A stretch of DNA of 64,000 nucleotides from an uncultured bacterium. GTDB taxonomy: Bacteria > Zixibacteria > MSB-5A5 > CAIYYT01. A program made the position numbers and the translations under genes. Below the pieces are notes generated by a model. It made no database searches, was not told the origin of the DNA, and worked only from the letters and a program-made list of their open reading frames with translations. The DNA is taken from the NCBI GenBank assembly GCA_963726455.1, contig CAVSCK010000005.1, positions 32,001 through 96,000 of the forward strand. The letters run 5' to 3'. Below, one piece after another: positions 1 to 9,041 of this stretch (positions are counted from its first letter, which is position 1; every line of letters begins with the position of its first letter).

Positions 1-2107
1 CGGACCATTTACGTATGCGCCGTCCGAGCGCGTCGTAGGCGTATCGCACCGAGCCCTTCGATGTTACCACTTCGATCAATTGGTTACGGCAATTGTAGCG
101 AAAGCGGGCTGGACCGGAAGGGCAAAAACCCTCGATCTGATTCCCGCGATTGTCATAGCGATATTGCTCCCGGCCGCGCCGCAACAATTGGTTGAACCCG
201 TTATAGTCGCATTCTTGGTCGCGATCCATGACTCGGTTACCGTTTGGATCGAGCTGATAGTACTCGAAATGTCTTCTTCCCGAGACGGATACATCCAGCA
301 ATCTTCCTTCGCGATCGTAGAAATATTCCAGCGTGCGATCTCTACTCGAGTCCTGAGTCAACCGATCGCATTCATCATACTTCCAAATGTGAGACACGAA
401 TGGCGCTTGATCAGCGTCCGCCGACAAGACATCAACCGCTTCAATCAATCCAAGTCGCTTGCTAGCCAGCTCCGTGCTGGTGCCGTTCGGATAGCGAATT
501 CTGGAAGGAGCTCCATTACCTTGATAGTCGATCTCGTACGTATCTCCATCCCAATCAACGATTCTTCGCACGCGGTGGTCACGATCTCTCTTGAAATTCA
601 AAGTCGATCCGTCAGGAGCAACCAATGCCAACAGCGCACCTACTGGATTTCGATCGTAGGTGACGACCTGACCGGCGAACTCTTCTCTCACAAGGTGGCC
701 GGCCTGGTTATACTGAAGACTTACCGTTCCCCACTCGTTTGAGGCCAGTTGCAGCTTCTTCCCGGCAAAGACGAGCCGCGTGAAGGTACCGTCTTCATTT
801 TCGAAAGTGATAGTATCTCCATCATCGCTGATTTCAAGCCGTCCAACTTCTTCGCCATTCACCAGGAACTTCTGCAAGTGCCCCCGATCGTCGAATTCAA
901 AGGACCAGATATCCCCGTTCGGCAACACGATGCGGGACGGAGTTTGCCACCGATCATACTCAAACAAAGTGCGGTTGTTGAGCGAGTCGGATATTTCCGC
1001 CAATAGGTTATCGGAGTCGTACCGCAATCTTGTGTTCGCGCCATTGCGATCCGTAATCCGAGAAAGCCGTCCATCTTGGTGCTCGAAACGCGTAGTTGCC
1101 CCATTCGGGTAGCGCAGAGTCACAAGATTGGAATCTTCGTTGTACTCGAACTCGTAAGGCGGCTGCAGTCCGTATCGAGTGCGAATCAATCTGTCGCGGT
1201 CGTCATGCTCAAACTGGACCTTGTTGCCGCCGGGATCGGTCAAGGTCGTGGGCCGCCCACGGGCATCGACGTTGCTCTGCCAAGTCAGTCCCTCTGCGGT
1301 CGTGAGCATAGCGCCTCCCGCGAGCGCGGAAACACGCATTGGGCTTCCAGCGGCATCCTCCAACCGCACGTCGCCGCTTGCAGAGTCGATGCTGCTCTGA
1401 CAGCCATGTTTATGGAATTCCTGTAACTCTGCCAGTTGTTGACGTTTCGCCGGCTCTCGTGAAAGGGATTCTACCTGTGATCGGCGAATGATCAGGCGAC
1501 CGAGTGAGTCGGTCGTTCGCGCGGTTGTCGGTACCAGCCCGGTGGAGTGCTGTCCCAAATCGTAATCAAGAATTGCCCCTTCTTCAGATTCAACCAGGAA
1601 TGAGCCTACAGGTCCAAAGATGCGCGAGAGTTCACCCAAATTGCAGGTGGGCAGGTAGACTCGCAGCACACGCGGGTCATAGAAGCGAAACAGCAGCATC
1701 TCGCCCGCTTCCGTAACCACGGTTAGCAGGCGTCGGCAATGTATTAGCAGCGTGTCCAGGGGGAAGGCGCTGGTCAGAAAGATCGCGTAATTCTGACCCC
1801 AGGCCTCAGAAGTGAGCCAGCGGGTGATCTCGCTATCGGTAGCACAGTCGATAAGGATGGGAGATACGCTAAAGTGCTTCTCAGCATCTTTCCCCTGGTA
1901 TAGTGACTGGTAGGTGTCTCTCGAGGCTGCGAGCTTCTCCAGAACAATCTCGCCGCGCGAGGCGTCAACTACTGCAAACAGGCCCGTAGATGTCTCCGAG
2001 GCCTTGCCGGAGAGCAAGTCGGATATCGATTGGTCGGGTGCGTCATTTGCGACTGACGGAGCACTATACTTCGCCAGCCGTGGACTCCAGCCTGATACAA
2101 TGCGCAC
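1..2107 (-). CDS. DUF4123 (T6SS adaptor-like) domain fused to Rhs/YD-repeat protein; 3' end lies outside window
   Basis: Not in ORF track (no stop before the edge). Hand translation from GTG 2107 (GAGGAG 6 nt upstream) gives ...FAVVDASRG...YQSLYQGKDAEKHFSVSPILI...WGQNYAIFLTSAFPLDTLLIHCRRLLTV...LLFRFYDPRVLRVYLPTC...FGPV (DUF4123-like). It continues in frame into YD repeats (TDPGGNKVQFEHDDRDRL, YPNGATTRFEH, FYDREGRL, YRYDNRGNQ, RYAYDALGRRIRK). Confidence 0.85.
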   Translation of the reverse strand, partial: MRIVSGWSPRLAKYSAPSVANDAPDQSISDLLSGKASETSTGLFAVVDASRGEIVLEKLAASRDTYQSLYQGKDAEKHFSVSPILIDCATDSEITRWLTSEAWGQNYAIFLTSAFPLDTLLIHCRRLLTVVTEAGEMLLFRFYDPRVLRVYLPTCNLGELSRIFGPVGSFLVESEEGAILDYDLGQHSTGLVPTTARTTDSLGRLIIRRSQVESLSREPAKRQQLAELQEFHKHGCQSSIDSASGDVRLEDAAGSPMRVSALAGGAMLTTAEGLTWQSNVDARGRPTTLTDPGGNKVQFEHDDRDRLIRTRYGLQPPYEFEYNEDSNLVTLRYPNGATTRFEHQDGRLSRITDRNGANTRLRYDSDNLLAEISDSLNNRTLFEYDRWQTPSRIVLPNGDIWSFEFDDRGHLQKFLVNGEEVGRLEISDDGDTITFENEDGTFTRLVFAGKKLQLASNEWGTVSLQYNQAGHLVREEFAGQVVTYDRNPVGALLALVAPDGSTLNFKRDRDHRVRRIVDWDGDTYEIDYQGNGAPSRIRYPNGTSTELASKRLGLIEAVDVLSADADQAPFVSHIWKYDECDRLTQDSSRDRTLEYFYDREGRLLDVSVSGRRHFEYYQLDPNGNRVMDRDQECDYNGFNQLLRRGREQYRYDNRGNQIEGFCPSGPARFRYNCRNQLIEVVTSKGSVRYAYDALGRRIRKWS

Positions 2108-2173
2108 CAATTGCTCCTCGTTACCTTGGCGTAATTCGCTGACCTTCTGCCCAGACCGGGCAGTGGTCTATTG

Positions 2174-2545
2174 TCACGGTTCGCAAAACGGCTTGCCGAA
2201 TTTGCTGGCGTTTTGCAGAGCGGATCCTTGGGAGGAACCTCCCGCGGAATCACCGATCAGAACGGTCGGCAGTCCCGCCACAACCGCGCCGCCGTGCACA
2301 GTCTGGTCCCCCATACGGGCCGCCGGACTGCCTCCGATCAAGACCGTCAGTGATCCAGTGGCAATGCTGTCCGGTGGTCCTGCGCATGTGGCCATGTCGC
2401 CCAATCGCGCAGCCGGCTGCCCCCCGATCAGCACAGTCGGATATCCCGCCGACACCGGACCACCCACATGTGGTGGAGGTGGAGTGCCTGGGTTTAACAT
2501 CGGGCAGGAATGCATGTCGCCTAAACGTGCTGCCGGCTTTCCCAT
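2174..2545 (-). CDS. PAAR domain spike-tip protein with C-terminal extension
   Basis: Three PAAR motifs (KPAARLGD, QPAARLGD, SPAARMGD), His/Cys metal ligands, tail QGSALQNASKFGKPFCEP. Confidence 0.95.
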   Translation of the reverse strand: MGKPAARLGDMHSCPMLNPGTPPPPHVGGPVSAGYPTVLIGGQPAARLGDMATCAGPPDSIATGSLTVLIGGSPAARMGDQTVHGGAVVAGLPTVLIGDSAGGSSQGSALQNASKFGKPFCEP

Positions 2546-2715: not shown

Positions 2716-3117
2716 TCAGACATTGCTCCGGCTCGCTGACAGCCATTGCCGTTCCAGGCGGAGGAATTGGGCCCACAAAGCGTTAACGGCCGCCTCTTCG
2801 AGTAGCTGCGGCAACGGCAGCAGCAAGGTCAAGATATCCACGAAGGTCTTCCGCTGCAAACCGTACATAGCTTTGGAATATCCGCCAAGTTGTCCGCGAA
2901 TCTTGCGCGCTTGCTTCAGGGAGGTATCCCCGCTGCCGTGGCCGCGCAGATATTCCTGGTAGCGGTGGCAAGCCGGAATGTATTTATCATGCGAGTACTT
3001 GATAAATTGGGCATCGTCGGCCAGTGTCACAAACACGTCCATGATGCGCTCGAAAGCGTCCTGATCGGACATTGCCTGCCGAAACAGCAAATTCAGATCG
3101 ATTATCGTCAATCCCAT
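2716..3117 (-). CDS. hypothetical helical protein (133 aa)
   Basis: ATG 3117 with GAAGGAG RBS, 14 nt after the stop of the upstream giant gene. Confidence 0.7.
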   Translation of the reverse strand: MGLTIIDLNLLFRQAMSDQDAFERIMDVFVTLADDAQFIKYSHDKYIPACHRYQEYLRGHGSGDTSLKQARKIRGQLGGYSKAMYGLQRKTFVDILTLLLPLPQLLEEAAVNALWAQFLRLERQWLSASRSNV

Positions 3118-3131
3118 CCTACTCTCCTTCG

Positions 3132-6100
3132 TTATTTGAGAAAGACCATCTTCTTGGATTGCACGTAGTCGCCCGCCTGAAAGCGACAGAAGTAAACGCC
3201 ACTGGCCATGATGACACCTGCTGCGTCTTTCCCATCCCACTCAATCGAATGAGATCCGGCCGCAACTCTTGGAATATTGTATTCTCGGACGACCTGGCCC
3301 AAAGCGTTCAAGATAGTCAGTCGCACGGAGGCTGGACTGGTTAAGTCGAAGGGAATCCTGAGAGATGAGTTGAAAGGATTGGGATAGGCGTCGTGAAGCT
3401 GCGTCCAACCCGGCACGCCGGACTGATATGTACCTCCACTTTCGCCTGGTCGCAGCAAGCGACAGTCGAAAACCCGTTCCTCCGCATCAGGCTCAAAGCT
3501 ATACTGAAGACTGTCGGCGAAGACCGCAGTACGGAACGTAGCTAAATCCGTCAGTTCAAACTGCAGGTTGCAGTTGTCGGGCATGGCCGCCCGCAGATAC
3601 AAGGTCACCGGCTTTGACAGATCGGTCTGTACGCGAAAGCGCCAGCGCAGGCTGCTGTCTGCCTCGGATCTAAAATCGGTTGCATAGTTGTTGCCGAAAA
3701 CGACCCTAACGTATGGAGAAAATGCGGGAGCAGCCGGCAGATCGAACCTGTCTAGCCCGTCGGCAGCTCCGCGTTTGACACCCAATCGCGCGCAATCGTC
3801 ATGATAGCCGAAGCATTCAGCCCGAATTGCAAGATTGCATTCGGTTTCGTCAGAACCCGCATTCGCCCGTTTCAGGTCGCGGGCGGACATGTATTCCTTG
3901 GTCGTATACCAGAGTGCGCAATCACTACAGGTCGAGTCCACGTTGATGAAGTAACCGTCCCCAACTGCCATCGGGGCGGGCGCGTCGGTAATGAGACCGT
4001 CCCAACCTGTACCATCATAATGATACAAAGCCGCACGCACAGGAGACTCAGTGCTTCCCACCGGTACGAGTCCTCCGAATTGTCTGACTTGCGAATCATA
4101 GAACTCAATCTCGTAAGAAAACGGATTACCAATCTGATTCCAGCCGGGAAGCAGTTTGAGCGAACGATAGTCCTGATAGCCATCTGTTTTGTCGGCAATT
4201 GTCGCCGTGCCAGTGATGCTCAATACTTGGCCATTCTTGACAATCACCCAGAACGCACTTCCGGGCGACAGAGAGTCCAGAGCATCCACGTAGGTCTCAC
4301 TAACCGGATTCCAGCGCCACATTCGCCAATCATATTCGTTGCGGCCATTCAATTGGTTGCGGATTGTCCCCGCAAGGTGTGAATCCGGATCAAGCGGCAG
4401 CGTGACCATTCGGTACTTCTGTGACCCCAAGTTCGCGACCGGATAATCCGTGGCATGGACTGCAAAGACCGCTGTCGAGCATGCCACCAGACCGCCAGTG
4501 TCGGTGACGCAGAATACGATTCGGTCGGATCTCGGAGTGCCGTCATTGGGTTGGCTGACAGTGGCCTTTCCCCCTTCAATATCGACTTGGAAGTTGTTCG
4601 CGCCTTTCGCTGTCCAATGCAGACTGCTAAGATCGTTGTCAACGTCGCTTACAAGGCCGTCGAGTTCGATGCGAGCAAAGCTGTCTCCGAGCTCCACTAT
4701 CTGACCGGGAATCGATGCAATGAAAGCAGGCGGATCGTTCACCGGAGCAATCGATATATTGACCTTGCATTTCTGAGATGTCGTGTTGTTGCCGTCGTCA
4801 AGGGCCCTGAAACCAAAGGAATCCAAACCGTAATAGTCTTGATCCGGGCGGTAAGTAAACCTCGGTGTGTCATACTCGGAGCTGTCAAGTCTCCCATGCG
4901 TCGGCGGCTCGGTGATGACATACTTGATAGGGTCGCAATCCGGACTATACGCAAGCATGTTCGCCACGAGATTGTTGTCCTCCGAGAGCGTGTAGCTGGT
5001 GTCGGACGCCCTGGGAGCATCAGGTGTGTTGGTTATTTCATAGGTTATTGTATCAGAGGAAGACAAATGTCCTGTATCCTCCGCAGTGAATATCACTTTG
5101 ATTGACCCAAAGACATCAAGATCCGTAGCTTCAACATACGCGATCCGATCACTGATTGCCACCTGCAACGCTCCCCGGCAGGGAGGATTCGGAAAGGTGT
5201 CAATAATGCTGTAGGTCCAGTTCAGCAGGCTGTCGGGACCGTCCACATCCGTCGCATACTCGTCTAGCCTTGTCGGTCCGAAGCCCGAGCCTTCGGTAAC
5301 CTTCTGGCTGGGAATACCCGTGACAACCGGCGCATCATTGACAGGCAGTATCGTGAAGAATACGCGAGCAATATTGGACAAGTGTAGCCGGTCACTTGTT
5401 TCAAACGTCAGCAGGTCTGATCCGTTGTAGTCCTGGTAGGGGTGGTAGACTAAGGTCCCACGGAGAGAATCGAAGTCGACAATTTTACCGTGCGCGGGCG
5501 CACTAACGAGGGCATAGACGAGCGAATCATTTTCAGGATCGTCGGCGATCAGACTCACTGGTGTGTCCACGTCCTCATTCAGCGTCAAAGTGTCGTTTTG
5601 GGCCTCCGGGGGCATGTTCGGGGAGATCACGAGCTTCACGATTGCTTTCTGCGGTGAGTTACTTGCCGCGGCCGCCGTCACATTGACAGTGTCAATGTAA
5701 GTTCCAGAAACCAGAGTACCAACGGTTATCGAAAGGACAATCGAGTCGTCTGGCACTCCCGAACTATCAGACAGTGTCAACCATGAGGAGTGACGTGCTG
5801 CGTTCCAGGCAAAAGTTTGTCCGCCCATGTTCCGGATATGCATGGTCTGCGGGGAGGGATTCGATCCTCGTTCCCCGGCACTAAAGGAATAGGCGGTCGT
5901 GTCGAGCCTGATGGTTGGTGGCGGCACTCCGATCGAGAATACAGCTTCACCGCAACCGCTGAGATGACCGGGATCCTCGGCGCAGAACGCGATATTCTCA
6001 AAGCCCGTCCAGGTCGGCGATGGTTTTGTGATCGTGGCCACATGGGTAGTCGGATTGATGCTGACAATTAGTGCGGAGTCGCCTACATGAGTCCAGGTCA

Positions 6101-9041
6101 TTTGCGAGGGCGTGTTGTCCGGGTCACTTACGTAGGAGTCAAGCGATATAGAAGCAAATGTCGCGCCATAGGCAAGCACCTGGTTGAGAATGCCACTAAC
6201 CACGGGCGCGTCGTTCACGCAGTTTATGGTGAATGTGACATCGTCGTATCCGGTTCCTCCGCCTTTGTCCGTTGCCGTGAATCTGATCGTGGCCGATCCA
6301 CACCAGTCTTTGTTAGGAGTGGTAATGGTAGCCACTCTTCCCGGACTAATGGAGCAGATGAGCGGTGCTCCCCCACTGTGACTCCATGTGATCTGATCGA
6401 ACCGATCGTCGGGATCGGTGACAAAGCCGTCGAGATAGATCGGAGCGAATGTCTCGCCTTCCTGAATCGGCGCCGGATTGGTAATGTTGACCGTCGGAGG
6501 CACGTCGGTAACGGGGCAGTTGAAGATGGTGTCACGAATTCCGATGTCGCTATAAGAACCGCCTCCCACGAGAGGAAGAACATTAGGATCTCCAGCATCG
6601 ACGCAGGGAGAACACGGACCAAGGGAGGCGTTGGCACATGTCTGAACCACGAACAAGGGGTCCAGACTGATACTGTGCAAACCCTTCGAAATCTGGCCGC
6701 CGTAGTTGTATCCGCTCACATTTCCATAAACATCGTTGTAATCGTCGGCGCCGATTTCCGCAACATTCGACGTGTCGAACACCCCGTAGAGCGGCTTGGT
6801 ACCGGACAGGCGCGTGTTGTTGTATACAATCGTATTTCGCAGATTGAGGTGTACCTTGTTGACTCCGATGCCCGCACCGCCCTCGGTGCTCTTGTTGCCG
6901 CTAAACACGCAGTTGGCGATCGTAAGACTATCAGCCGGGGAGTATGCCGTCCCGATCACAAATACACCACCACCATTCGTGTCCGCGTTGTTCGCAAAGA
7001 ACATGGTTCGGCTGAGCTTACCTCCCGCTGCATTGACTCCAACCAACCCCCCTCCCGACCAGTGGGAGGTGTTGCTGCAAATCCGTGAATTTGTGATCTC
7101 GAAATATGACCGGTCACGGAAAGAAAGCCCACCACCCGAATCACCACTTTGATTTCCCGAAATTGTGCAACTGTCGATCTTAACCGAAGCGGCTCGGGCC
7201 AGAAGGCCACCACCCTGCTTATCGACTCCGGAGCCCACCAGACTTCCTCCGGTCAGTGTGAAACCGACGAGACTGACAATGCCAGACGAGACGGTGTCTA
7301 CCAGAACGCAGCGGCTCCCTGAAACTCCCTGAACGAATGTCGAATCCCGGCCCTTGGTTCCGCGAATCGTGAGATTCTTGTGTTTCACGGCTAGCGGGGG
7401 ATAAGTGCCCGAAGCAACCAGAATCACATGACCCGCCTTGGCAGAATCCACTGCGGGTTGAATAGTTTTGAATGGGTAGTCGCTGCTGCCATCCCCCGTT
7501 ACGTCGCTGCCTTTGGAGGCATTAACGTACCAGTTGGGACCGCCGTAAGGGATCCTCTCGGAGAGCTTCGCGACATATAGATGAGACTGGGTGTTATCGA
7601 CAACATCCGCAGGACCGGCGAAGATGATATTCCCCTGTGGGTCGATTTTGACTGCGTCCAGGTTGTCAACATTGGAACTCAGCTTTAGTTTCGTATAGGC
7701 CCAGGCTACACCGGCGGGGGAAGCCGTATTGAACTTCACGACAAAGGGTGCGGAAACGCCTTCGCCTGTCCCGGCATAGAGCCGAAATCCCGCCACAACC
7801 GCCGAGTCATTACCCTTGAGTTGCATATCCGTGGTGACTTCCTCGGCATCAGTAGCTCCGGGAAATGAGTAGGTGACTGGTGACCAAAGTTGGTTGCCAT
7901 TCAAGTCGAAGCCATAAAGAATGATCCCCACATAGAGATTCTGGGCACACATATAGACTCGCCCACTAGTACGATTAACGCGCACGACAACGCCGCCATC
8001 GAACCGCTCATCGGTCTTCGTCATGTTGGTCCAGGGACTGGGCCGGGTCCAGATGAGGCTGCCTGTTGAGCCGCTGAACTTCGAAAGCGCGACCCTGCCA
8101 TGTTCATTGGGGCCCCAACCAGTACCCCAGGTCGATGCATAGACGTTGCCCGAAGCATCGAAATCGATATTGCGGGTACGGTACCATTCGGAGATATACT
8201 GGTCGCCATTGACGTCTGTAATGCCGTAATAACTGCTCCAGATGAAGCCGTTCAACTGCGGGCTCAATTTGAGCAAGCAAGCCAAATACTCGGATGGCCT
8301 GGGACTGCCAGTGGCGACATTGATCGAATCGGCTCGCCCTGCGATGTACAGATAACCATGGTCAAATGCGACCGTGTAGGGCTTATAGCGGGAATAAGCC
8401 GCATCTGGTAATCCGGCATAGGCAGCTAGAGAGTCGCCGTTCCAGGAGTACTTGATTATCAGCAAGTTGCCGTCAGCATCTGAGGCAGGCGACGTGTTAT
8501 CCCCCCATCCGACGACGTAGACATTATCGTCCTGGTCGAGAGCAGCACCGAGGGCGCGCTGTCGATTAAACTGCTGGAAGATGTTCGGCTGGCTCCAGAT
8601 CTCTAAGCCGCTTTGGCTATTGCGCTTACTGACACAAATGCGGTTTCGGACGGAGCTGTTTTGAGCGAAGGTACCAATAACAACGACGTTTCCATCCGAC
8701 CCAACCAAAACGTCGCGACCATAGTCATTGGATCCTGATGAACTCTCAATGCTCTTTGACCATATTAGAGCGCCATTTGAGGCGTACTTGACCAGCAGAA
8801 TATCATCATTCGCGTTCAAATTGCGGCTCTGGCCAACAGCGTAAATATTGCCCGAGGCATCAACAGTCATCGCCCGATTACCGTCGGCGGTCAAGTCAAA
8901 CGTGCCGGAAGTTTCCTGCACCCAGAGGGTGTCAACCGCGGCTTGCGCGATATTAGAAGTCATCCCGAATACGAGAAGCAGGAGCGACGTCGCGGCCGCG
9001 GTTCCCGCAAACCTCCCGGCTGCGATAACTGACTTCCTCAT
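3132..9041 (-). CDS. 1969-aa secreted multidomain protein: beta-propeller, DUF1565/right-handed beta-helix, Ig/cadherin-like repeats, BACON-like domain, T9SS type A/FlgD-like C-terminal domain
   Basis: Signal peptide; VDASGNIYAVG repeats; WYVNASKGSDVTGDGSSDYPFKTIQPAV; VNDAPVV and TLNEDVDT repeats; C-terminal DAYPNPFNSS...WDGKDAAG...ASGVYFCRF...KKMVFLK. Confidence 0.9.
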   Translation of the reverse strand: MRKSVIAAGRFAGTAAATSLLLLVFGMTSNIAQAAVDTLWVQETSGTFDLTADGNRAMTVDASGNIYAVGQSRNLNANDDILLVKYASNGALIWSKSIESSSGSNDYGRDVLVGSDGNVVVIGTFAQNSSVRNRICVSKRNSQSGLEIWSQPNIFQQFNRQRALGAALDQDDNVYVVGWGDNTSPASDADGNLLIIKYSWNGDSLAAYAGLPDAAYSRYKPYTVAFDHGYLYIAGRADSINVATGSPRPSEYLACLLKLSPQLNGFIWSSYYGITDVNGDQYISEWYRTRNIDFDASGNVYASTWGTGWGPNEHGRVALSKFSGSTGSLIWTRPSPWTNMTKTDERFDGGVVVRVNRTSGRVYMCAQNLYVGIILYGFDLNGNQLWSPVTYSFPGATDAEEVTTDMQLKGNDSAVVAGFRLYAGTGEGVSAPFVVKFNTASPAGVAWAYTKLKLSSNVDNLDAVKIDPQGNIIFAGPADVVDNTQSHLYVAKLSERIPYGGPNWYVNASKGSDVTGDGSSDYPFKTIQPAVDSAKAGHVILVASGTYPPLAVKHKNLTIRGTKGRDSTFVQGVSGSRCVLVDTVSSGIVSLVGFTLTGGSLVGSGVDKQGGGLLARAASVKIDSCTISGNQSGDSGGGLSFRDRSYFEITNSRICSNTSHWSGGGLVGVNAAGGKLSRTMFFANNADTNGGGVFVIGTAYSPADSLTIANCVFSGNKSTEGGAGIGVNKVHLNLRNTIVYNNTRLSGTKPLYGVFDTSNVAEIGADDYNDVYGNVSGYNYGGQISKGLHSISLDPLFVVQTCANASLGPCSPCVDAGDPNVLPLVGGGSYSDIGIRDTIFNCPVTDVPPTVNITNPAPIQEGETFAPIYLDGFVTDPDDRFDQITWSHSGGAPLICSISPGRVATITTPNKDWCGSATIRFTATDKGGGTGYDDVTFTINCVNDAPVVSGILNQVLAYGATFASISLDSYVSDPDNTPSQMTWTHVGDSALIVSINPTTHVATITKPSPTWTGFENIAFCAEDPGHLSGCGEAVFSIGVPPPTIRLDTTAYSFSAGERGSNPSPQTMHIRNMGGQTFAWNAARHSSWLTLSDSSGVPDDSIVLSITVGTLVSGTYIDTVNVTAAAASNSPQKAIVKLVISPNMPPEAQNDTLTLNEDVDTPVSLIADDPENDSLVYALVSAPAHGKIVDFDSLRGTLVYHPYQDYNGSDLLTFETSDRLHLSNIARVFFTILPVNDAPVVTGIPSQKVTEGSGFGPTRLDEYATDVDGPDSLLNWTYSIIDTFPNPPCRGALQVAISDRIAYVEATDLDVFGSIKVIFTAEDTGHLSSSDTITYEITNTPDAPRASDTSYTLSEDNNLVANMLAYSPDCDPIKYVITEPPTHGRLDSSEYDTPRFTYRPDQDYYGLDSFGFRALDDGNNTTSQKCKVNISIAPVNDPPAFIASIPGQIVELGDSFARIELDGLVSDVDNDLSSLHWTAKGANNFQVDIEGGKATVSQPNDGTPRSDRIVFCVTDTGGLVACSTAVFAVHATDYPVANLGSQKYRMVTLPLDPDSHLAGTIRNQLNGRNEYDWRMWRWNPVSETYVDALDSLSPGSAFWVIVKNGQVLSITGTATIADKTDGYQDYRSLKLLPGWNQIGNPFSYEIEFYDSQVRQFGGLVPVGSTESPVRAALYHYDGTGWDGLITDAPAPMAVGDGYFINVDSTCSDCALWYTTKEYMSARDLKRANAGSDETECNLAIRAECFGYHDDCARLGVKRGAADGLDRFDLPAAPAFSPYVRVVFGNNYATDFRSEADSSLRWRFRVQTDLSKPVTLYLRAAMPDNCNLQFELTDLATFRTAVFADSLQYSFEPDAEERVFDCRLLRPGESGGTYQSGVPGWTQLHDAYPNPFNSSLRIPFDLTSPASVRLTILNALGQVVREYNIPRVAAGSHSIEWDGKDAAGVIMASGVYFCRFQAGDYVQSKKMVFLK

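Follow-up and report, generated by a model that had tools for sequence, protein, structure and literature searches.

A DUF4123 adaptor lobe joined in one frame to a putative type VI secretion Rhs effector, behind a tailed PAAR gene of an uncultured Zixibacteria genome

Background

How would an Rhs effector of a type VI secretion system (T6SS) be loaded onto its spike if the adaptor were part of the effector itself? The question is raised by the left end of a 64,000-nucleotide (nt) stretch of DNA from an uncultured bacterium of the Zixibacteria (GenBank assembly GCA_963726455.1, contig CAVSCK010000005.1, positions 32,001 to 96,000), where a minus-strand gene joins a DUF4123 domain to an Rhs core directly downstream of a PAAR gene. 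The whole stretch, which is G000:C5:32001-96000 in the coordinates of its genome (G000), is referred to as the window. DUF4123 adaptors are described as separate, non-secreted go-betweens (PMC11925235, PMC10673891), and in the two-lobe model the N-lobe holds the spike tail and the C-lobe holds the effector (PMC11582642). It is argued below that the window gene is real and a rare variant, a version of the known loading system "spike tail - DUF4123 - effector" in which the adaptor part is fused to the effector. Its product is probably a T6SS cargo Rhs effector that docks on the PAAR tail by a fused DUF4123 N-lobe, the gene being a fusion of an adaptor with a downstream Rhs.

Extent and domains of the fused gene

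Amino acid (aa) numbers refer to the 1206-aa whole-gene protein unless stated otherwise. A single open minus-strand frame occupies 2..2110 of the window (703 aa in the open reading frame (ORF) listing) and runs off its left edge; the whole gene ends at G000:C5:30490 and encodes 1206 aa (L001:8493-12110, protein P0001), the database's own copy (P0003) having 1205 aa. Candidate start codons are a TTG at 2110 and a GTG at 2107, and a start at this point is supported by the N-terminus MVRIVSGW, which is shared with P0004, a fused homologue from another metagenome, and with stand-alone adaptors. In the 703-aa frame Pfam detects DUF4123 (PF13503, E 5.6e-26, 91.5 bits against a cut-off of 25.8) over aa 44-162, covering profile positions 1-118 of 119, and RHS_repeat (PF05593, E 1.4e-29) in five stretches. 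At the genome level the PF13503 match lies at G000:C5:33625-33981 with 95.4 bits, and the whole 1206-aa protein matches RHS_repeat at E 1.9e-26 and PF03527 at 32.3 bits (cut-off 27.9). YD repeats were also reported in the frame by NCBIfam, together with a match below threshold to Tla1, the chaperone of Tle1 and likewise a DUF4123 protein. No PAAR family was found by Pfam in either the window frame or the whole 1206 aa, PAAR being a separate gene. The genome has one DUF4123 match and two PAAR genes, and its RHS repeats are confined to this gene. A preliminary description of the window had claimed an uninterrupted minus-strand frame from 2107 to the window edge, a DUF4123-like N-terminus (including LLFRFYDPRVLRVYLPTC, here aa 139-156) followed by YD repeats, and no PAAR domain in the frame; all of this was borne out.

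Within the window the minus-strand gene divides into the DUF4123 match (1625..1981), which holds the invariant FRFYDPRV (aa 141-148) and was placed by Pfam, alignment and the Tap3 fold; a junction segment (1325..1501, aa 204-262, GRLIIRRSQVESL...LEDAAGS), placed by homology and model; and the window part of the Rhs/YD-repeat cage (2..1324, aa 263-703), placed by Pfam, model and Foldseek. Landmarks along the whole protein are GRLIIRR at aa 204, LEDAAGS at 250, YD repeats from ~280, the RHS core (PF03527) at 762-786, the Rhs end motif ...DPLNRVDPTGAF at 851, hydrophobic Gly/Ala-rich stretches within ~850-984, and a hydrophilic tip of no family to 1206.

The N-terminal domain and its relation to whole adaptors

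A HMMER search with aa 1-270 against 1.84 billion representatives returned 2934 proteins at E <= 0.001, and an alignment (A1) was made of the query and 51 of the best 150 representatives, those with a match starting near their own N-terminus. In A1 the whole adaptors (~300-335 aa) and the DUF4123-Rhs protein have in common the N-terminal MxxIxSGW, an α/β N-lobe with invariant F141, R142, D145, P146 and R147, and a linker followed by the motif GRLIIRxxQ. After this motif the whole adaptors go on into a helical lobe of ~100 aa, whereas the DUF4123-Rhs protein is without it. The stand-alone adaptor of a genome of the same family (G017; 334 aa) is 40% identical to the fused protein, the identity being confined to aa 1-239, and its last ~90 aa have no counterpart there, Rhs repeats standing in place of the C-lobe. 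The junction segment has homologues in two places, at the opening of the C-lobe in whole adaptors and in the prefix with which unfused short Rhs proteins begin.

An AlphaFold2 model of the N-domain on A1 reached a pLDDT of 84.3 and a pTM of 0.80, with residues 206-241 forming a strand and two helices packed on the domain. The sole significant Foldseek match in the PDB was the adaptor Tap3 from the Tap3-Tke5 complex (9r8g_B; E 6.2e-08, probability 1.00, TM 0.51, 198 columns), which was also the sole significant PDB match by sequence profile (E 6.5e-07); the PDB copy searched holds one DUF4123 chain, within an adaptor-effector complex. By Pfam and by the Tap3 fold the domain belongs to the DUF4123/Tap-Tec adaptors, but it lacks their bilobed form with a helical C-lobe, and it is no separate adaptor protein, since domain and effector share a reading frame. 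What the N-domain retains of a Tap/Tec adaptor is the N-lobe, the half that binds the spike; the C-lobe, helical and responsible for effector binding, has given way to the Rhs. The models suggest that the protein keeps the tail-binding function and that the effector-binding function has been replaced by a peptide bond.

The adjacent PAAR and its predicted docking

The ORF at 2174..2545 (minus strand, stop codon included) encodes a 123-aa PAAR spike-tip protein (PF05488, E 5.4e-27, 94.3 bits against a cut-off of 27) and is separated from the Rhs start by a spacer of 63 nt (2111..2173, minus strand, from the ORF listing, with sequencing unitigs identical over 2116-2266). Its C-terminal tail (2177..2236, aa 104-123, SSQGSALQNASKFGKPFCEP) bears a GxPFCE motif, identified by alignment, survey and model, and ends in ...ALQNASKFGKPFCEP, as the preliminary description had it.

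The association of such tails with N-lobes was surveyed in the 80 genome loci closest to the N-lobe (L026-L105), 75 of which have an ORF ending <=400 nt upstream. These upstream ORFs were classed by phmmer with our own queries as 21 PAARs, 25 VgrGs and 29 others. GxPFC was present within the last 30 aa of 34/75 upstream ORFs, as compared with 3/1107 other same-strand ORFs; a looser pattern, G.[PA][FLYM][CVISA], was present within the last 30 aa of 50/75 and 25/1107, respectively, and by class in 19 of the 21 PAARs and 23 of the 25 VgrGs. Fourteen PAARs align as ...Q-x-x-x-[LM]-x-x-A-A-x-x-G-x-P-F-C-E (alignment A2). Within the window's phylum, G017 has a tailed PAAR followed by the 334-aa adaptor and a 205-aa effector, G018 a PAAR followed by a 305-aa adaptor and a 651-aa effector, and G026 a tailed VgrG followed by separate N-lobe (175 aa) and C-lobe (125 aa) genes and a 504-aa effector. 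As a wider observation, the tail A-x-x-A-A-x-x-G-x-P-F-C-E was seen on VgrG or PAAR proteins encoded immediately before N-lobe genes, and the record titles of these loci name at least six phyla.

Among 16,381 frames of >=80 aa in G000, the only credible GxPFC tail is that of the window PAAR; the single VgrG of the genome ends ...GKGPVTVKGSPISLN and has no GxPFC tail. The complex of N-domain and PAAR was predicted from alignments A1 and A2 in three runs with three controls, giving ipSAE values of 0.67, 0.67 and 0.66, against 0.00 for the best of the controls. The mark used for this score is reached by 58/80 solved complexes and 2/110 mismatched pairs, counts that are approximate here because the alignments were supplied by the authors. 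At least 55% of contacts agreed between runs and the partner pLDDT was at least 76. Confident predicted contacts run from PAAR Q106-P123 to D49, S51, F141, R142, D145, R147, V148 and V213-A227, and the contacted F141, R142, D145 and R147 are four of the seven invariant N-lobe columns. The model thereby supports a position of the PAAR tail on the invariant FRFYDPRV face of the N-lobe.

These data bear on a second way of docking, in which the N-lobe would bind VgrG, as in all characterised Tap/Tec systems, and the PAAR would only sharpen the spike. The upstream ORF is a VgrG in 25/75 surveyed loci, which speaks for it; in G000, however, VgrG has no such tail, the only one being on the adjacent PAAR, and the controlled complex model favours binding of the PAAR tail, so that docking on VgrG appears very unlikely. 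The earlier proposal that the adaptor is the effector's built-in loading domain, docking on the PAAR tail, is thus supported at the level of sequences and models: for a built-in loading domain by an N-lobe without its C-lobe and by the existence of unfused three-gene modules (below), and for docking by the motif association, by the genome's only such tail, and by the modelling of PAAR tail and N-domain with its controls. It had also been held that the loading route is unusual, and this did not stand. A PAAR tail leading to a DUF4123 protein is common in environmental phyla, PAARs making up 21/75 of the upstream ORFs, and DUF4123 chaperones have been stated to serve both VgrG- and PAAR-bound effectors, with N-termini that likely evolved with the tails (PMC11925235), from which it follows that the PAAR-tail/DUF4123 route is not new. 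The unusual element is the covalent fusion, not the route.

Origin of the fusion

Unfused counterparts of the module were found at two loci. In a Pyrinomonadaceae metagenome-assembled genome (MAG; L093, OY970389.1), genes for a VgrG (746 aa), a PAAR (122 aa), an N-lobe (199 aa) and an Rhs protein (976 aa) are present, the N-lobe and Rhs genes overlapping by 4 nt in different frames. The Rhs start there (MKIRREQIEVL / MKIRREQIEVLRQ...ILEDAAGG) aligns with aa ~205-260 of the DUF4123-Rhs protein, and this Rhs (P0180) is 43% identical over 98% of aa 200-860. Sorangium cellulosum (L099, NZ_CP012670.1) has a VgrG, a PAAR of 111 aa, an N-lobe gene and an Rhs of 920 aa; these two are the only loci among the 80 with an Rhs downstream of the N-lobe gene. 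Because unfused PAAR/N-lobe/Rhs modules occur elsewhere, the DUF4123-Rhs gene is read as an adaptor-effector fusion; sequence comparison indicates that it arose by fusion of an adaptor gene with a downstream Rhs gene.

A search with aa 200-860 listed 120 proteins. The closest ~60 of them are short Rhs proteins, mostly of ~900-1060 aa, with 71-100% query cover (98-99% in most), and of 59 ids (P0171-P0229) 30 carry the start [ILVMF][RKH][ILVM][RKST..]xxQ by strict pattern and several more by eye. PF13503 is present in three of the 120 listed, namely the window's own protein, P0004 (1130 aa) and P0190 (2086 aa), and another three of the 120 carry a PAAR. A fourth fused protein is P0008 (1175 aa) of Sphingomonas sp. 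NBWT7, which is annotated simply as a "DUF4123 domain-containing protein". P0190, a JGI protein, has an architecture of its own, in which DUF4123, a short Rhs, DPxG and a hydrophobic stretch are followed by DUF6531 and a second complete Rhs, so that an Rhs is borne as the "toxin" of another Rhs. A quick IQ-TREE phylogeny of the Rhs core was made with 45 rows (4 fused, including P0190, and 41 unfused), drawn from the 59 ids and others, leaving out five ids of ~2000 aa, four short or truncated ids and eight more that failed a motif/length filter. P0001 and P0004 are sisters (SH-aLRT 99), and P0190 and P0008 lie elsewhere on long branches. Three changes of the label "fused" are needed on this tree, of which well-supported branches force at least two, and in these sequences adaptor-Rhs fusion arose at least twice.

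The 4-nt overlap in different frames at L093 also means that one indel would fuse genes of this type, and 1-bp insertions are found elsewhere in the G000 assembly, so the window fusion has to be weighed as an assembly artefact in which a 1-bp error joins an N-lobe gene to an overlapping Rhs gene. This is extremely unlikely, since the frame is equally continuous in P0004, a protein of a different metagenome (a single BLASTP segment of 1142 residues, 44% identical and ungapped from aa 181 to 300), and since the in-frame linker ...DSLGRLIIR..., common to P0004 and to whole stand-alone adaptors such as P0018, would not be preserved by a frame error; P0190 and P0008 are further fused forms. In run X1, the sole public run found (share of words 0.06), two 151-nt unitigs were identical to the window and covered 2116-2266 and 2310-2460 only, outside the junction; no RNA run was listed. 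A metagenome scan with degenerate patterns from a junction alignment (A4) gave one relative in 597 matched stretches, a 1994-bp contig (L106) that carries the start of an unfused Rhs and lacks an adaptor.

Two-lobed adaptors are themselves divided in the 80 loci. The N-lobe ORF is 235 aa or shorter in 46/80, a separate C-lobe-like ORF is among the next three in 35/80 (the very next in 28), and both lobes lie in one ORF in 4; split adaptors are the rule in this clade. We presume that such N-lobe/C-lobe pairs may be akin to the TecT/co-TecT pair.

Rarity of the architecture

Among the best 150 representatives for the N-domain, 149 are 166-451 aa long and one is longer than 451 aa. A profile search limited to proteins of 640-2000 aa, which was not exhaustive because it scored only the 7998 candidates sharing most words, returned 18 proteins, two of them with RHS. 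In all, four DUF4123-Rhs fusion clusters were seen. The other 16 proteins of the profile search (P0005-P0007, P0158-P0170) form a separate observation: they are Bryobacteraceae-like, 674-771 aa long, with an N-terminal DUF4123 as the only known family and a C-terminal region of ~500-600 aa of no known family, and constitute a second, commoner adaptor fusion. In the window's phylum DUF4123 is present in 4/285 genomes and fused only in G000. Among 401 sampled genomes of the class of G285, a sample that did not include the source of P0008, 7 had a DUF4123 match, all in frames of 165-403 aa; among 401 genomes of the phylum of a Bryobacterales MAG there were 15 matches over the cut-off (one sub-threshold match was left out) in frames of 173-343 aa. 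An N-lobe and an Rhs in one ORF were found in 0/80 loci, the longest host ORF being 681 aa.

According to published work, multidomain proteins make up 2.7% of the DUF4123 proteins, most often with FHA as the partner (PMC7714669); adaptors are "encoded as single proteins", as set against N-terminal MIX-like domains (PMC10673891); and DUF4123 is found at the C-termini of evolved VgrGs (bioRxiv 10.1101/2021.10.07.463556). No DUF4123-Rhs protein is described in the main-text passages searched; Figure S2 of PMC7714669, a list of domains fused to adaptors, may name RHS. With one case in the best 150 representatives and none described in those passages, the architecture did not prove common and already characterised, the outcome named in the preliminary description as one that would refute it.

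Cage, toxin part and candidate immunity gene

When the contig was extended leftward, as the preliminary description had called for, a DPxG motif at aa 851, the C-terminus of the toxin part and a small candidate immunity gene were all there. The Rhs cage comprises ~590 aa and ends beyond the window edge, at the DPTG motif (aa 851-854). A full-length AlphaFold2 model from a 74-row alignment had an overall pLDDT of 70.7, with 10-residue block means mostly above 90 over aa 240-830 and low confidence over aa 856-1200. The top Foldseek matches of the cage were T6SS Rhs effectors, led by Tse15 (8uxt, E 7.8e-41) and followed by RhsP, Tse5 and RhsA at E 1e-34 to 1e-36; a Salmonella bongori Rhs core and a Photorhabdus Rhs were matched as well. 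In its repeats, RHS core, DPxG motif and cage fold the protein thus agrees with T6SS Rhs effectors.

Between DPxG and the variable tip lies a Gly/Ala-rich hydrophobic module (aa ~850-984) with several membrane-helix-like stretches, to which no Pfam family was assigned and which is also present after DPxG in P0004, P0008 and the Rhs proteins of L093 and L099; one possibility is that it helps the tip to cross the inner membrane of the target. The tip itself diverges from that of P0004, and in the ESM Atlas its best score was 0.86, with polymorphic-toxin clusters as weak leads only. A downstream ORF of 133 aa overlaps the DUF4123-Rhs stop codon by 4 nt. It matches no Pfam family and contains no hydrophobic segment, and its product is therefore a candidate for an immunity protein of the cytoplasm. 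The genes beyond it are housekeeping genes, FtsE/FtsX-like and others.

The type VI secretion system of the genome and the weight of the evidence

G000 is rated 100% complete and has one divergent T6SS cluster (C3:703.4-718.5 kb) with two ClpV-like genes, TssB, TssC (of the PF17541 type), an Hcp-like gene, a VgrG of 619 aa, a gp25-like gene, TssF, TssG, TssK and others. The ClpV-like ATPase is encoded by two adjacent genes of 480 and 360 aa (G000:C3:715987-718517); in G003, of the same genus, they are of 483 and 363 aa (L107). A frameshift as the cause of this split was rejected, as G003 has the same two frames, and from this identity the split is taken to be native. An extracellular contractile injection system was considered as the delivery machine and rejected, no Phage_sheath_1 being present in the genome. 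The product of the second PAAR gene (G000:C3:481073-482149, L009; 358 aa) is extended far at its C-terminus and lacks a GxPFC tail; the gene is followed by ORFs of 1128, 424, 141 and 343 aa, role unassigned, which may form a second effector module.

Several points weigh against a functional effector docked in the way proposed. Compared with G002 and G003 (same genus), tssC of G000 has five 1-bp insertions and the hcp-like gene has one (G000:C3:713400-715600; L020/L108), none in an obvious homopolymer, and a tssC homologue is present in all 21 family genomes, with open frames of 470-526 aa in the 20 relatives. The cage, at ~590 aa, is much shorter than the matched solved T6SS Rhs chains (964-1414 residues); a long stretch of ~350 aa follows the cleavage site and is modelled with low confidence; the toxin tip has no match in Pfam at E <= 1 or in NCBIfam at E <= 0.1, and the 133-aa ORF has no Pfam family. 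The complex score is the model's own confidence, obtained with author-supplied alignments, and an adjacent tailed PAAR is known for one (P0001) of the four fused proteins. Finally, adaptors are reported as not secreted (PMC11925235, PMC10673891), and a fused adaptor must be either co-secreted or cut off.

Because tssC and the hcp-like gene are frameshifted, the T6SS as assembled may not work. The locus could accordingly be a stranded relic, the module being as described above, the sheath and tube genes of its host inactivated and nothing delivered, and it may persist by immunity-gene addiction or owing to the recency of the loss. Beyond the six insertions and the open tssC frames of the 20 relatives, this agrees with the finding of no other sheath in the genome (no PF05943, no PF04984). 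Against it, no frame is broken in the genes for the 1206-aa Rhs, the PAAR, VgrG or TssE/F/G/K, nor in the other T6SS genes of G000, and six 1-bp insertions in ~1.4 kb, with 95% aa identity in the in-frame parts, could be a locally bad consensus. The insertions may be real decay or a local consensus error, and a relic is considered distinctly unlikely.

The secretion of adaptors bears on another course of events, in which the fused N-lobe acts as a classical non-secreted adaptor and is cut off near aa 240-270 by Rhs N-terminal autoproteolysis as in TseI, so that it would load the cage and then stay behind or travel non-covalently. N-terminal self-cleavage is documented for TseI and homologues (PMC7170923), and the reported non-secretion of adaptors (PMC11925235) would fit. 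The cleaved parts of TseI nevertheless stay together (PMC7170923), and for this reason N-terminal cleavage would not change the docking logic; removal of the N-lobe is thought unlikely, though less so than a relic.

Proposed mechanism and implications

The preferred reading, an effector docked on the PAAR tail by its own N-lobe, can be set out as follows; binding of the tail by the N-lobe, secretion, cleavage, toxicity and immunity are steps that we infer. The 123-aa PAAR would cap the VgrG trimer, and its flexible C-terminal tail would be held by a groove on the Rhs N-domain, built in the model from the invariant FRFYDPRV face and the helix at aa 213-227. Held in this way, the Rhs cage and the C-terminal toxin would need no separate adaptor to be carried at the spike tip, and a C-lobe for binding the effector would have become superfluous and been lost. 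After firing, the toxin part (aa 855-1206), consisting of the Gly/Ala-rich hydrophobic module and the tip of no known family, would be freed by Rhs aspartyl autoproteolysis at DPxG. The overlapping 133-aa downstream gene would protect the producer.

The segment [KR]-I-I-R-x-x-Q with the next helix opens whole-adaptor C-lobes, stand-alone C-lobe genes and unfused short Rhs effectors. A speculative reading, which we regard as doubtful yet worth stating, is that this segment is a portable tag that completes the N-lobe groove, so that the tail is gripped only by an N-lobe that holds cargo (cargo-gated docking), the fused protein being the hard-wired form. If this were true, an adaptor domain could travel with its effector, and both the dominance of N-lobe-only genes in the clade and the tolerance of effector fusion would be explained.

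A natural N-lobe with an effector in place of its C-lobe is an evolutionary experiment that fits the two-lobe model, and it raises the question of whether the adaptor domain is fired with the cargo or cut off first. The GxPFC(E) tail on VgrG or PAAR and the IIRxxQ prefix on cargo could help to pair spikes, adaptors and effectors in poorly studied phyla, and the fused form would be a compact one-piece handle for loading cargo onto PAAR.

Neighbouring genes

A 174-aa ORF upstream of the PAAR gene (2716-3240) was considered as part of the module and is treated as unrelated because it has no family and is not conserved at the G017 locus. Further upstream, the minus strand of the window encodes a 1969-aa protein (3132-9041) with Big_9, cadherin-like and FlgD_ig domains and a type IX secretion system-type Por_Secre_tail match just below the cut-off (26.2 against 27 bits).

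Comparison with known systems

The preliminary description had set the fused protein against Rhs toxins that typically carry their own PAAR and use Eag chaperones. The criterion of that class (prePAAR/Eag type), an N-terminal PAAR of its own, does not apply to the window protein, and the contrast as drawn was too narrow: PAAR-less Rhs effectors with separate DUF4123 adaptors are already characterised, namely TseI/TecI and RhsP2/Tap14 (PMC7170923, PMC11582642).

The RhsP2/Tap14/VgrG14 system of Pseudomonas aeruginosa resembles the window locus in that the loading of a PAAR-less Rhs depends on a DUF4123 protein (Colautti et al. 2024, PMC11582642), the conserved N-lobe of which binds the C-terminal tail of a spike protein (PMC11582642). 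It differs in having a separate bilobed adaptor with a C-lobe that binds the Rhs cage electrostatically, and in its partner, a VgrG (PMC11582642), whereas the window protein has its N-lobe covalently attached to the Rhs and no C-lobe, and the tail belongs to the PAAR. In the TseI/TecI/VgrG1 system of Aeromonas dhakensis the Rhs likewise has its own N-terminal spike-interacting region, an "intramolecular chaperone", and DUF4123 is involved (Pei et al. 2020, PMC7170923); that region, VIRN, is however distinct from the separate DUF4123 chaperone TecI, which is still needed and binds the Rhs core (PMC7170923), whereas in the window protein the DUF4123 N-lobe is itself the N-terminal region. In the TseT/TecT/co-TecT/PAAR4 system of P. 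aeruginosa a DUF4123 chaperone serves a PAAR-bound effector, as proposed here, but the effector does not belong to the Rhs class, and the chaperone and the co-chaperone are each a protein of their own (PMC11925235).

MIX and FIX trafficking domains and the C-terminal DUF4123 of evolved VgrGs are similar in that a loading module may be stand-alone or fused to a partner (PMC10673891, bioRxiv 10.1101/2021.10.07.463556); the MIX and FIX folds are unrelated, and the reported DUF4123 fusion is on the VgrG side, as opposed to the effector side in the window. The operons of L093 and L099 have the same three parts in the same order, a short-clade Rhs, and the hydrophobic module after DPxG, but adaptor lobe and effector are two genes, and the Rhs starts with the M-K-I-R-x-E-Q prefix that is internal in the window protein.

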